Part shown: one piece after another, positions 2,895 through 6,414 of the stretch
How the letters are laid out: the number at the start of each line of letters is the position of its first letter
How positions within the stretch are numbered: position 1 is the first letter of the stretch
From: a virus
Taxonomy: Duplodnaviria > Heunggongvirae > Uroviricota > Caudoviricetes
Length of the DNA stretch: 28,308 nt
Direction: 5' to 3' (one strand)
IMG/VR virus record: IMGVR_UViG_3300045988_152359
Position numbers and translations under genes: made by a program
The notes under the pieces: model-generated
Databases searched by the model: none
What the model saw: only the letters and a program-made list of their open reading frames with translations
What the model was told of the DNA's origin: nothing

Positions 2895-3188
2895 TTATTG
2901 TGAGCAATACACACGCGCTTCCAGCGGAGTATAAATGCCTAAAGTAATAAAACCGAGCAATCCATTTACGAATGTTTGCTGGGTTTCTGTTTTAACAACA
3001 TTTTCTGCGCCGCCACAAATTTTGGCTGCATCAACAGTTTTCTCCTGTCCAATTCCCGAAACGAAGAAATGATGGGTGATGGTTTCCTTTGGTGTTACTG
3101 CTGTCGGTTTGTTTCCAACAGTAAACGTCTGTTGAGCACATCCTGTAATAAGCATTGCCAGAGCGGCAGAAAACAACATTTTTTTCAT
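2895..3188 (-). CDS. bor: Bor lipoprotein (lambda Bor family, serum-resistance moron)
   Basis: 97 aa from ATG at 3188 (MKKMLFSAALAMLITGCAQQTF...TPLEARVYCSQ), lipobox ITGC, preceded by AGGATAA; the ORF-track start at 3236 is an unsupported N-terminal extension. Confidence 0.9.
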   Translation of the reverse strand: MKKMLFSAALAMLITGCAQQTFTVGNKPTAVTPKETITHHFFVSGIGQEKTVDAAKICGGAENVVKTETQQTFVNGLLGFITLGIYTPLEARVYCSQ

Positions 3189-3368
3189 CTTATTATCCTG
3201 CATTGTTAAAAACGGCAGAATCCTATGTGACAACAATTAAACGATAGTTAAATGGATTGATGAAATTTAAAACTATATAGGTGTACGGTCAGACTATTGG
3301 AGGTAGTCAGGATTTGAATGTCAGTCTGTTGTCGGCATTCTGGCAATGCAATTTGGATAAAGCGGGGA

Positions 3369-3491
3369 TTAAAAAGATAGAGGCGAGCCGGTCAGGTAGA
3401 AATGAATCAGGCTCAAAGTGAAGCGGAAAAGGTCTGTGGCACAAACTGATACAGCCATAATTACAGCCTGATGATTTGTGGAATGAAACAT
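3369..3491 (-). CDS. Small hypothetical protein (40 aa, partly hydrophobic), not in the ORF track
   Basis: ATG at 3491 preceded by a strong Shine-Dalgarno (AAGGAGG, 6-nt spacer); translation MFHSTNHQAVIMAVSVCATDLFRFTLSLIHFYLTGSPLSF; lies in the otherwise non-coding gap between bor and the HNH gene. Confidence 0.35.
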   Translation of the reverse strand: MFHSTNHQAVIMAVSVCATDLFRFTLSLIHFYLTGSPLSF

Positions 3492-3713
3492 GTTGAACCT
3501 CCTTAATTAATGTTATTCGAGTGAGGAAGGCATTCTGTCCTTCTATAGTGTCCAGTAAATCAAACAGGAAACCTGTCCAACGTGTTGGACAAGCCTCTCC
3601 ATTAGTGAGTTGTATTGATCACAACTCTACAAAGAATTCATGACTGCGTAGATGAAAATAGTTTCACGATGAATGGAGGAGGCTATGTCGGTGGCTTCTT
3701 CATTGGAGTACAT

Positions 3714-4064
3714 ATGCCATCACGAATCCCAAAAGCCTGCCGCGTTCGCGGCTGCCGTAATACCACTACAGACCCGTCAGGCTACTGCGAAAGCCACAAA
3801 AACGAAGGCTGGAAACAATACAAGCCGGGGCAATCCCGTCATCAGCGCGGCTACGGTTCGAAGTGGGACAGTATCCGCGCGCGCATATTGAAGCGTGACA
3901 AAGGCCTGTGTCAGTTATGTCTGCGTGCTGGTGTGGTGCGTGAGGCGAAAACCGTTGACCACATCATCCCTAAAGCGCATGGCGGCACCGATGCAGACAG
4001 TAATCTGCAGAGCCTGTGCTGGCCGTGCCATAAGGCGAAGACGGCCCGTGAACGGCTAAAGTGA
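3714..4064 (+). CDS. HNH endonuclease (terminase-associated)
   Basis: C-terminal HNH motif ...CQLCLRAGVVREAKTVDHIIPKAHGGTDADSNLQSLCWPCHKAK; ATG at 3714 has a GGAG RBS. The ORF track starts at 3615, but that extension lacks an RBS. Confidence 0.8.
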   Translation: MPSRIPKACRVRGCRNTTTDPSGYCESHKNEGWKQYKPGQSRHQRGYGSKWDSIRARILKRDKGLCQLCLRAGVVREAKTVDHIIPKAHGGTDADSNLQSLCWPCHKAKTARERLK

Positions 4065-4684: not shown

Positions 4685-6414
4685 GCCGGAAATCTTACCC
4701 CAACGTAAATGCTGCCAATCAGTATGCCCGGGATGTCGTTCGCGGAAAGATTGTGGCCTGCCAGTTTGTGATTCAGGCCTGCCAGCGCCATCTTGATGAC
4801 CTGATGGCGGAAAAAAGTAAGTCGTTTCGTTACCGCTTCGACAAGGACCTGGCTGAACGGGCCGCGAAATTTATTCAGCTGTTGCCGCACACCAAGGGTG
4901 AGTGGGCATTCAAGAGGATGCCCATCACGCTGGAGCCGTGGCAGCTATTTGTGATCTGCTGTGCGTTTGGCTGGGTCAATAAAGGCACCCGGTTGCGCCG
5001 CTTCCGGGAGGTGTATACCGAAATCCCCCGTAAGAACGGCAAATCGGCAATCTCTGCCGGTGTTGCCCTGTATTGTTTTGTCTGTGATAACGAGTTTGGC
5101 GCGGAAGTGTATTCCGGTGCCACGACAGAGAAACAGGCGTGGGAAGTCTTTCGCCCGGCGCGACTGATGTGTAAACGCACACCCATGCTGACGGAAGCGT
5201 TCGGGATTGAGGTTAACGCCTCAAACATGAATCGTCCGGAGGATGGCGCGCGGTTTGAACCGCTGATCGGTAACCCCGGTGATGGTTCATCACCCCACTG
5301 TGCGGTGGTGGATGAATATCACGAGCACGCCACCGATGCGCTTTACACCACGATGCTTACCGGGATGGGGGCGCGACGTCAGCCACTGATGTGGGCCATT
5401 ACTACTGCCGGGTACAACATTGAGGGGCCGTGCTACGACAAGCGACGGGAAGTTATCGAGATGCTCAACGGTTCGGTACCCAACGATGAACTGTTCGGGA
5501 TCATCTATACCGTTGACGAAGGTGACGACTGGACCAACCCGCAGGTGCTGGAAAAAGCCAATCCAAATATTGGCGTGTCGGTTTATCGCGAATTTTTGTT
5601 AAGTCAGCAGCAGCGTGCGAAAAATAACGCCCGTCTGGCAAACGTCTTTAAAACAAAACACCTCAATATCTGGGTGTCGGCGCGTTCGGCGTATTTCAAC
5701 CTGGTGAGCTGGCAGAGCTGCGAGGATAAATCACTGACCCTTGAGCAGTTCGAGGGGCAGCCGTGCATTCTGGCCTTTGACCTGGCGCGTAAGCTGGATA
5801 TGAACAGCATGGCGCGACTTTATACCCGCGAGATTGACGGTAAAACGCATTACTACAGTGTGGCCCCGCGTTTCTGGGTACCGTATGACACGGTGTACAG
5901 CGTCGAGAAAAATGAAGATCGCCGGACAGCCGAACGCTTTCAGAAATGGGTGGAAATGGGCGTTCTGACCGTTACCGATGGTGCGGAGGTGGATTATCGC
6001 TACATCCTCGAAGAGGCCAAAGCGGCGAACAAAATCAGCCCGGTCAGTGAGTCACCCATCGACCCCTTCGGGGCGACCGGGCTGTCACATGACCTTGCTG
6101 ATGAAGACCTGAACCCCGTCACCATCATTCAGAACTACACCAACATGTCCGACCCGATGAAAGAGCTGGAAGCGGCAATTGAATCGGGGCGTTTTCATCA
6201 TGACGGCAATCCCATCATGACCTGGTGTATCGGCAACGTGGTCGGCAAAACCATTCCGGGTAACGATGATGTGGTGAAGCCCGTCAAGGAGCAGGCGGAA
6301 AACAAAATTGATGGTGCAGTTGCGCTGATTATGGCGGTTGGCAGAGCCATGCTGTACGAGAAAGAAGACACGCTGTCTGATCACATTGAGTCCTACGGGA
6401 TCCGCTCGCTTTAA
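4681..6414 (+). CDS. Terminase large subunit (ATPase/nuclease)
   Basis: 577 aa; position and size typical of an HK97-like large terminase; conserved layout terS-terL-portal. Confidence 0.9.

Follow-up and report, generated by a model that had tools for sequence, protein, structure and literature searches.

What occupies the unannotated 525 bp between bor/iss and the HNH endonuclease gene of an Escherichia coli lambdoid prophage? The prophage is represented here by a 28,308-nt IMG/VR record (IMGVR_UViG_3300045988_152359), the whole of which we call the window. An initial annotation had placed in this gap a 40-codon open reading frame (ORF) behind a strong Shine-Dalgarno (SD) sequence, together with a palindrome. 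The ORF, its AAGGAGG SD and the 8-2-8 palindrome are all present where they were placed, and all are conserved. Our best reading is that positions 3369-3617 are a single minus-strand cassette composed of a promoter of T7/Berlin type (P1), a hairpin, a promoter of SP6/K1-5 type (P2), a short leader with a consensus SD, and the 40-codon ORF. On balance, we consider it probable that this cassette stays silent until the RNA polymerase (RNAP) of an infecting podophage transcribes it and that the ORF product is a suicide or exclusion peptide.

Promoters of two podophage types upstream of the small ORF

The initial annotation described a half-site related to the palindrome at 3547-3554, where a TGTCCA repeat (3549-3554) is found. 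These letters are better explained as the GGACACTATA core of a predicted SP6/K1-5-type promoter, P2 (3540-3560, minus strand; ATTTACTGGACACTATA GAAG), which extends from -17 to +4 with a predicted +1 at G3543. Read on the minus strand from 3560 to 3540, P2 is ATTTACTGGACACTATAGAAG and is identical at 21 of 21 positions to a 21-mer that E. coli phage K1-5 repeats at four intergenic, coding-strand positions (12580, 14590, 22852 and 39265). Repeated SP6-like 21-mers were extracted from phage genomes for comparison, and those of SP6 and GRNsp51 are ATTTAGGTGACACTATAGAAG and close variants. P2 conforms to the SP6/K1-5-type (Molineuxvirinae) consensus ATTTA-NNN-GACACTATA-GAAG, from -17 to +4, with G at +1. 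When the window was searched with an SP6 18-mer, the standard SP6 primer, at up to 3 mismatches, P2 was the sole match (3 mismatches) and none of 100 shuffles yielded one; the best match to P2 in 300 shuffled windows had 2 mismatches of 17. The corresponding allele of Shigella phage SfIV, ATTTAGGTGACACTtTAGAAG, has the SP6 form (20/21 to SP6), and, when the flanks are included, it matches a GRNsp51 promoter at 31 of 32 positions (E=5e-6).

Located 57 nt 5' of P2 on the same strand is P1 (3595-3617, minus strand; CAATACAACTCACTAAT GGAGAG), a putative T7/Berlin-type single-subunit RNAP promoter extending from -17 to +6, with a predicted +1 at G3600. BLAST of this stretch, which reads CAATACAACTCACTAATGGAGAG from 3617 to 3595, returned matches in T7-like phages at sites annotated as promoters. 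One of the 13 annotated promoters of Yersinia phage Yepe2 is phi9 (TAATACAACTCACTAAT), to which P1 is identical at 16 of 17 positions (3617 to 3601); the C of P1 at -17 recurs in Yepe2 phi13 and phi17, and the GGAGAG start in phi6.5. Assignment of P1 to the T7/Berlin type (Studiervirinae; TAATACGACTCACTAT(A/T)GGGAGA, -17 to +6) is made through this match to a natural variant. The SfIV allele, CAATACGACTCACTAATGGGGAG, agrees with Yepe2 phi13 at 21 of 23 positions. Support for P1 comes from the natural-variant match, its position beside P2 and the better alleles in relatives, rather than from the consensus alone.

A host promoter was also sought. A sigma-70 scan of 3100-3800 found no promoter-like site on either strand, and the -35/-10 candidates picked by eye in this region were all poor. 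Because host RNAP has no recognizable promoter there, the gene should be silent in the lysogen.

The palindrome is the core of a podophage hairpin

The palindrome, TGTCCAAC-GT-GTTGGACA at 3574-3591, had been proposed to be an operator or a terminase/cos-associated binding site. It turns out instead to be a conserved intergenic hairpin of SP6-like podophages. On the minus strand it forms the core of hairpin 1 (3568-3597), which lies directly downstream of P1, at +4 to +33 of the predicted P1 transcript, and has a 13-bp stem and a 4-nt loop. This hairpin is present in both the minimum free energy (MFE) and centroid folds. Across 16 distinct variants of the regulatory region, pairing holds in 95% of cells, and both partners change in three of the pairs (C-G/U-A, A-U/C-G); the covariation score was reached by 0 of 500 shuffles, and slid controls pair at 37-58%.

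Hairpin 1 corresponds to an intergenic element, TGTC(C/T)AAC-NN-GTTGGACA, that is repeated with similar flanks in SP6-like phages, with 9 copies each in SP6 and GRNsp51, 7 in Kp7 and 3-4 in K1-5. The T7-like phage Yepe2 lacks it. In the SP6-like phages, the element is followed either by an SD after 20-40 nt or by a phage promoter after 5-14 nt. The window copy has the exact core and is positioned 13 nt before P2, forming the same hairpin-then-promoter unit. Natural T7-type promoters likewise have 5' stem-loops downstream, as in Yepe2, and the natural promoters of Yepe2, SP6 and K1-5 share with the cassette the layout of promoter, stem-loop and SD. One copy of the element is also found within the primase/helicase gene in SP6, GRNsp51, K1-5 and Kp7. 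In these phages the element may serve as an RNase III site, a terminator or a site for protein binding.

Other roles for this region were considered. A minus-strand scan flags the window copy of the palindrome as resembling a Rho-independent terminator; its tail is interrupted, there is no T-run on the plus strand, and we reject this reading because the U-tract is not conserved in the SfIV or Klebsiella copies. With the HNH protein as an anchor, 44 loci were retrieved from other genomes. These loci share nothing past the 3' end of the neighboring o-spanin gene. Beyond E. coli and Shigella the segment thus does not accompany HNH, which makes a cos or HNH-associated role unlikely. A second, possible hairpin (3526-3543, minus strand) would form at the 5' end of the P2 transcript through a 5-bp GAAGG/CCUUC stem. 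All of its cells (100%) are paired, and its only changes are A to G, which give G.U on minus-strand RNA and an A.C mismatch on the plus strand; it is weak and falls outside the MFE fold. Pairing of a plus-strand CCUCCUU with GGAGGAGG (3675-3682) or with the HNH SD, as an anti-SD device, was rejected because GGAGGAGG varies (GAAGGCAG in SfIV) while CCTCCTT is invariant, leaving no covariation.

Coding signature of the small ORF

The ORF (3369-3491, minus strand) has 40 codons including the stop and encodes the putative payload peptide MFHSTNHQAVIMAVSVCATDLFRFTLSLIHFYLTGSPLSF. Its SD, AAGGAGG at 3498-3504 as read from the sequence, lies 6 nt 5' of the ATG on the minus strand (AAGGAGGTTCAACATG from 3504 to 3489) and is unchanged across the 16 regulatory-region variants. 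The SD and ATG alone are not significant, as the window has a single AAGGAGG-N4-9-ATG where 0.32 are expected, and 24 of 100 shuffles contain one or more. Constant length likewise proves little when taken from the 100 complete IMG/VR copies (48 unique), in every one of which the ORF has 40 codons, because these were retrieved with a pattern that spans the SD and ATG and so fixes the start.

What decides the matter is the codon positions at which the polymorphisms fall. The initial annotation had missed an overlap here. The last 17-18 codons of the ORF are antisense to the 3' end of a gene for an o-spanin of the Rz1/LysC type, of which a remnant occupies 3293-3421 on the plus strand, as identified from SfIVp53 and from the annotation of strain SCU-118. 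Between 3372 and 3432, the variable sites (3372, 3375, 3378, 3387, 3402, 3411, 3414 and 3432) are third codon positions of the minus-strand ORF and second positions in the lysC frame, with one first-position site as the sole exception. In the C-terminal 17 codons this amounts to 8 synonymous variants and 1 nonsynonymous variant, where the expected synonymous fraction is 0.26. Left of 3371, past the ORF stop, the variable sites shift to third codon positions of lysC. The only other frame that shares its third position with the ORF is closed by stops. From these positions we conclude that the C-terminal 21 residues (DLFRFTLSLIHFYLTGSPLSF) are constrained at the protein level on the minus strand, and that the lysC tail drifts at positions where changes leave the ORF product unaltered. 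Klebsiella relatives of the cassette, described below, show a similar pattern over the last 16 codons. Between the window and Kp4864-1, 4 of 6 differences are at third positions (4 codons synonymous, 1 nonsynonymous), and between the window and Kp4856-1, 7 of 11.

Variation is very high in the N-terminal 23 codons, where 3 synonymous, 24 nonsynonymous and 1 stop-creating variants were counted and no such coding signature is seen. Diversifying selection or allele exchange could account for this. Within the N-terminal half (3436-3488, minus strand), third positions vary least, and the half occurs as two main allele blocks with recombinants (e.g., P0009). SfIV also has a 40-codon ORF here, but the low N-terminal match to it (6 of 19 residues) had made the ORF look spurious, a view that we dropped after the codon-position analysis. 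In its pattern of variation, the small ORF has the marks of a genuine and conserved coding sequence.

The product had been suggested to be a small membrane peptide. Hydrophobic character is indicated by a positive grand average of hydropathy (0.45-1.54) in all of seven representative variants; the best 17-residue hydropathy windows range from 1.05 to 2.45 and reach a transmembrane level in only some. None of these peptides has a significant match in Pfam, PHROGs, PADLOC or NCBIfam, and the only NCBIfam and Pfam matches are far under cutoff. A tblastn search of the peptide against 50,697 phage records found homologues in temperate phages only and none in podophages, indicating that the small gene was not captured from a podophage. 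Two other candidate coding regions nearby were set aside. A 40-codon plus-strand ORF with a GTG start (3521-3643) has no SD and is open in SfIV as well (43 codons); it is probably not a gene, its changes being mostly nonsynonymous. An upstream extension of the HNH frame was rejected, as an SfIV indel breaks the frame.

A conserved cassette with exchangeable parts

To look at conservation independently of the ORF and its signals, a census was anchored on the lysC 3' region only, giving 147 copies (91 unique). An ORF of 29-41 codons with a common end point is present in 141 of the 147, nearly always behind AAGGAGG or GGAGG. The peptides fall into several sequence classes, represented by ...LSLIHFYLTGSPLSF, ...INAI..LICLLIAK.YGVLQYF and MSHIEIIQLIDSYVLLATHIICLI.AYRKLIADLSRRS. 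The promoter architectures vary as well, and include T7>hairpin>Kp7>KP34>P4.

Temperate phages of Klebsiella carry the same cassette at the 3' end of LysC. In Kp4864-1, the order is a T7-type site (GACTCACTATTAGGAAGG), a palindrome identical to that of the window, AATAGTGGCGAGgATAGAAC, TTTAATGTTACACGAGTAGGAAC, a fourth motif, an AAGGAG SD and a 38-codon ORF, the peptide of which shares ...LSLIHFYLTGSPLSF with that of the window. AATAGTGGCGAGgATAGAAC is 19/20 identical to a motif of which the Klebsiella SP6-like phage Kp7 has at least 10 copies ahead of genes, and the unit of palindrome plus promoter is 87% identical over 47 nt to Kp7 5864-5910. TTTAATGTTACACGAGTAGGAAC is of KP34 type; a related 20-mer, TTAATGTTACNGGAGTAGGA, occurs 2-3 times, on one strand, per ~43-kb podophage contig. 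In ST101phi6.1, the site TTAATGCGACTCACTATAGAGAGA agrees at 21 of 23 positions, counted by eye, with the T7 consensus. Promoter alleles in E. coli, Shigella and Klebsiella match those of podophages of the same or related hosts. The near-identity to particular podophage intergenic units indicates that these parts came from podophages by recombination.

The fourth motif, AAGTTACACAATAGAA, lies just 5' of the SD in many Klebsiella cassettes (L153 2645-2700; L161, L162) and resembles an SP6-type core (GTGACACTATAGAA). No podophage group with a match to it was found. Its 15-mer alone is too common in IMG/VR to inform. A second conserved palindrome, TTGTCTCTTAT(A/G)AGAGACAA, which the E. coli window does not have, is present 5' of the Klebsiella promoter array (L153 ~2830-2860; L154, L161, L162).

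The flanks of the cassette are mosaic. SfIV has a copy of window 3302-3713 that is 84% identical, and in it SfIVp53, an o-spanin of the Rz1/LysC type, shares the frame of the remnant and stops at the counterpart of window 3421. For the matching place in strain SCU-118, the annotation pipeline PGAP lists an "Rz1 lytic protein, incomplete, missing N-terminus." In the window itself, a complete lambda-type Rz/Rz1-bor module is fused to the final ~120 nt of a LysC-type gene. Flanks have been swapped around the cassette without its loss, with bor or LysB/LysC on one side and HNH, a lambda-type terminase or a metallopeptidase-like gene on the other, and further E. coli contexts involve an IS1203 insertion, an extra 64-amino-acid gene and a partial tandem duplication. 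From prophage to prophage, the recombination joint falls at ~3302-3330, just past the stop of the small ORF, as if the ORF set the limit of replaceable DNA.

A proposed role triggered by infecting podophages

What might such a cassette do? We infer from the promoter identities, the identity and covariation of the hairpin, the coding signature and the conserved modular architecture, all of which are observed, that phage polymerases would fire P1 and P2, that the peptide would be made and that it would be toxic or protective. In a lysogen, with no recognizable promoter for host RNAP, the gene would be silent. Upon infection by a podophage of the T7 or SP6/K1-5 kind, the single-subunit RNAP of the invader would recognize P1 or P2 and transcribe the ORF at a high level, much as the phi10 signals of T7 drive gene 10. 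The small, largely hydrophobic peptide would then damage or depolarize the membrane, or otherwise block the infection, aborting the cycle of the invader and protecting sister lysogens and the prophage they carry. Among roles for the ORF, a toxin-like or exclusion peptide is the most plausible.

A broader version, which we hold tentatively, is that the cassette is a natural "promoter-trap" for immunity, in which an array of promoters, one per local podophage lineage, precedes one small toxic peptide gene, and the RNAP of the invader serves as both sensor and executioner. The array would draw on promoters of T7, SP6/K1-5, Kp7 and KP34 type copied from those phages, and such arrays, along with the hypervariable N terminus of the peptide, would bear the traces of an arms race with podophages.

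Several observations weigh against a function in defense. P1 differs from the Berlin 17-mer consensus at -17, -11 and -2 and is marginal, with 20 of 300 shuffles doing as well, and P2 alleles with changes in the core, e.g., GGACAGTATAGG, occur in ~12 of 101 copies and may be dead. The hydrophobicity of the peptide is uneven, the SfIV-type peptide having a best 17-residue window of only 1.05, and no significant match to the peptide was found in PADLOC, Pfam, PHROGs or NCBIfam. Inspection of 3189-3368 together with a terminator scan revealed no terminator after the ORF, and the transcript may therefore have other targets. In addition, the N-terminal half of the ORF is not under purifying selection, and near-identities to podophages, such as 31/32 for GRNsp51 and 87% over 47 nt for Kp7, show origin and not function.

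These last two points, along with the highly mosaic nature of lambdoid genomes at this place, are what would be expected of a recombination fossil, left by illegitimate or homologous exchange of a lambdoid phage with co-infecting T7-like and SP6-like phages, in which promoters and hairpin have no activity and the ORF is a frame open by chance antisense to lysC. The near-identities extend into the flanks, both for SfIV with GRNsp51 and for Kp4864-1 with Kp7. We nonetheless regard a fossil as unlikely. Elements of two to four podophage subfamilies stand in tandem, all in one orientation, ahead of one and the same strong SD and ORF. In E. coli, Shigella and Klebsiella alike, the alleles correspond to those of podophages with related hosts. 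The period-3 signature in the ORF frame is maintained at the cost of the lysC frame, peptides that are unrelated in sequence still come from ORFs of 29-41 codons, and the cassette survives replacement of its flanks. In particular, a fossil does not explain why the promoters are stacked, why the SD and ORF stay constant and why a coding signature is seen.

About as unlikely is that the transcript, rather than the peptide, is the payload. Transcripts from P1 and P2 would run leftward through bor/iss and be antisense to the lysis and Q genes, and they may reach the leftward early operon, with up-regulation of Bor/Iss, last-chance rescue of the prophage or RNA-mediated interference with the invader as possible effects. 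T7-type RNAPs pass most host terminators. As no terminator follows the ORF, transcription that continues into bor/iss, which in the window lies 180 nt downstream in the same orientation, and past it may be of consequence. Against this, the downstream neighbor varies among bor, antisense LysC/LysB and others, so that only the SD and small ORF are constant, and the coding signature reflects selection on the peptide.

We consider it quite improbable that the ORF is an ordinary moron expressed in the lysogen, that is, a small membrane peptide transcribed by host RNAP as a type I toxin or constitutive exclusion factor, with the palindrome as operator or terminator. A small hydrophobic peptide with a strong SD, in a slot between the lysis cassette and the packaging genes, would fit such a gene, as would the score of the palindrome and its U-rich tail as a minus-strand terminator in the window. 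In the region, however, neither a sigma-70-like promoter nor an antitoxin RNA family was found, the U-tract is missing from the SfIV and Klebsiella copies, the palindrome is a podophage repeat element and not a prophage operator, and exact matches to phage promoters are left unexplained. Finally, that the tandem promoters, up to four and of different specificities, are a decoy that titrates or misdirects the RNAP of the invader, with the ORF irrelevant, is very improbable, as a single chromosomal copy presumably could not titrate an abundant polymerase and the conserved SD, ORF and coding signature would go unexplained.

Comparison with known systems

Type I toxins, such as Hok, TisB, Ldr, Ibs and ShoB, are peptides of ~20-50 amino acids with a hydrophobic core, are often prophage-borne and must be kept tightly off. 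The cassette peptide is likewise small and may have such a core; however, it has no sequence similarity to them, and control here would come from the promoter specificity of a foreign polymerase and not from antisense RNA. Membership in this group, raised by the initial annotation, is not established. Rfam searches of the whole window at the gathering threshold and of 3150-3760 at E<=10 gave nothing credible. For an antisense antitoxin, there was accordingly no Rfam family, nor was there a sigma-70-like promoter on either strand of 3100-3800, although no targeted search for an antisense RNA was made. During prophage induction, the late operon transcript would be antisense to the ORF.

In T7, the phi10 promoter, a 5' hairpin and a strong SD drive gene 10. 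The cassette is like these signals and the late signals of SP6, on which pET is based, in its promoter, in a 5' stem-loop that starts within a few nucleotides of +1 and in the spacing, 6-8 nt, between a consensus SD and the ATG. Unlike them, it resides in a temperate phage without such a polymerase, stacks promoters of two subfamilies, and has as its gene a 40-amino-acid peptide without a podophage homologue.

A full-text literature search that included the exact promoter and palindrome strings found no description of the cassette, and the nearest work, a 2006 study by Chen and Schneider, is the only prior report we found of such promoters outside podophages. That study reportedly noted two or three clustered T7-group promoters in enterobacterial prophage-like DNA without a matching RNAP gene. 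The islands are reported to be 4-13 kb long and to have direct repeats, an integrase gene, promoters spanning 150-620 bp and, downstream of these, 2-5 genes called "phage-related." By comparison with these islands, whose 12 promoter clusters may include this locus, the cassette occupies ~250 bp at the junction of lysis and packaging genes in complete lambdoid prophages, its only constant downstream feature is the 40-codon ORF, and its alleles match podophages of related hosts. The JJ1886 copy was considered as an integrase/sit-type island, and this context was rejected, since that copy sits in a complete lambdoid prophage.

Exclusion of T7-group phages is known from PifA of the F plasmid and RexAB of lambda, which are constitutive sensors of phage proteins or DNA-protein complexes. 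The proposed mechanism shares with them carriage on a mobile element, action only after infection has started and sacrifice or arrest of the infected cell, but here the promoter itself would be the sensor. An engineered suicide cassette in Lactococcus, in which a phage-specific promoter drives a lethal gene, was reportedly built by Djordjevic et al. in 1997; the logic proposed here is identical, although that precedent is artificial. Phage satellites, including phage-inducible chromosomal islands (PICIs), are likewise resident elements that respond to a component of an incoming or induced phage. In contrast to these, the cassette is not a mobilizable island and has no replication or packaging genes under its promoters, and it would be set off by the RNAP of a virulent phage to which its carrier is unrelated.

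Implications

If the cassette does act against podophages, it would be a minimal defense of ~250 bp that needs neither a protein sensor nor an antitoxin. Its specificity would be readable from DNA, as the promoter alleles would tell which podophage groups a lysogen is armed against, with a bearing on host-range prediction for therapeutic phages of the K1-5, SP6, T7 and KP34 types. It would also bear on prophage competition with virulent phages, provide a natural counterpart of engineered phage-triggered suicide circuits and account for the o-spanin fragment retained in lambda-type lysis modules. Annotation would be affected as well. Window 3240-3713 is found in 633 of 5426 complete E. coli genomes (~12%), yet the RefSeq E. 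coli records that we examined list only the neighboring genes, with no annotation over the cassette, and the small ORF is a hypothetical protein in one GenBank phage record. Even without a role in defense, the locus is a clear case of the transfer of regulatory DNA from virulent podophages to temperate phages.

Neighboring genes and variant contexts

In the window, the cassette is preceded by genes for an endolysin (1908-2405) and Rz (2390-2863) and by bor/iss (2895-3188, minus strand), and is followed by the HNH endonuclease gene (3714-4064), beyond which are a P27-type small terminase, a large terminase and HK97-type head genes. Among the HNH-anchored loci, Edwardsiella has only 26 nt between the stop of the o-spanin gene and the start of HNH. 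A prophage of Shigella flexneri SFBU0723 has a 162-amino-acid ORF in the slot between o-spanin and HNH (L004 1966-2454), which suggests that this slot is a general moron position.

Some E. coli prophages have a plus-strand gene for a 64-amino-acid hypothetical protein, WP_109161702.1, between the cassette and HNH (L048 1682-1876, L049 1753-1947). In others, which package with a lambda-type terminase (Nu1/DUF1441, nohD), the cassette persists as a stump together with the first ~150 nt of HNH, and in O157:H7 it persists where IS1203 interrupts HNH (L051, L053, L054 and L056 for both contexts together). E. coli A0 34/86 (L051 1261-1978) carries a partial tandem duplication that takes in the regulatory region and ~20 nt from the start of HNH (the counterpart of window 3491-3730), which places two sets of P1, hairpin and P2 in series.

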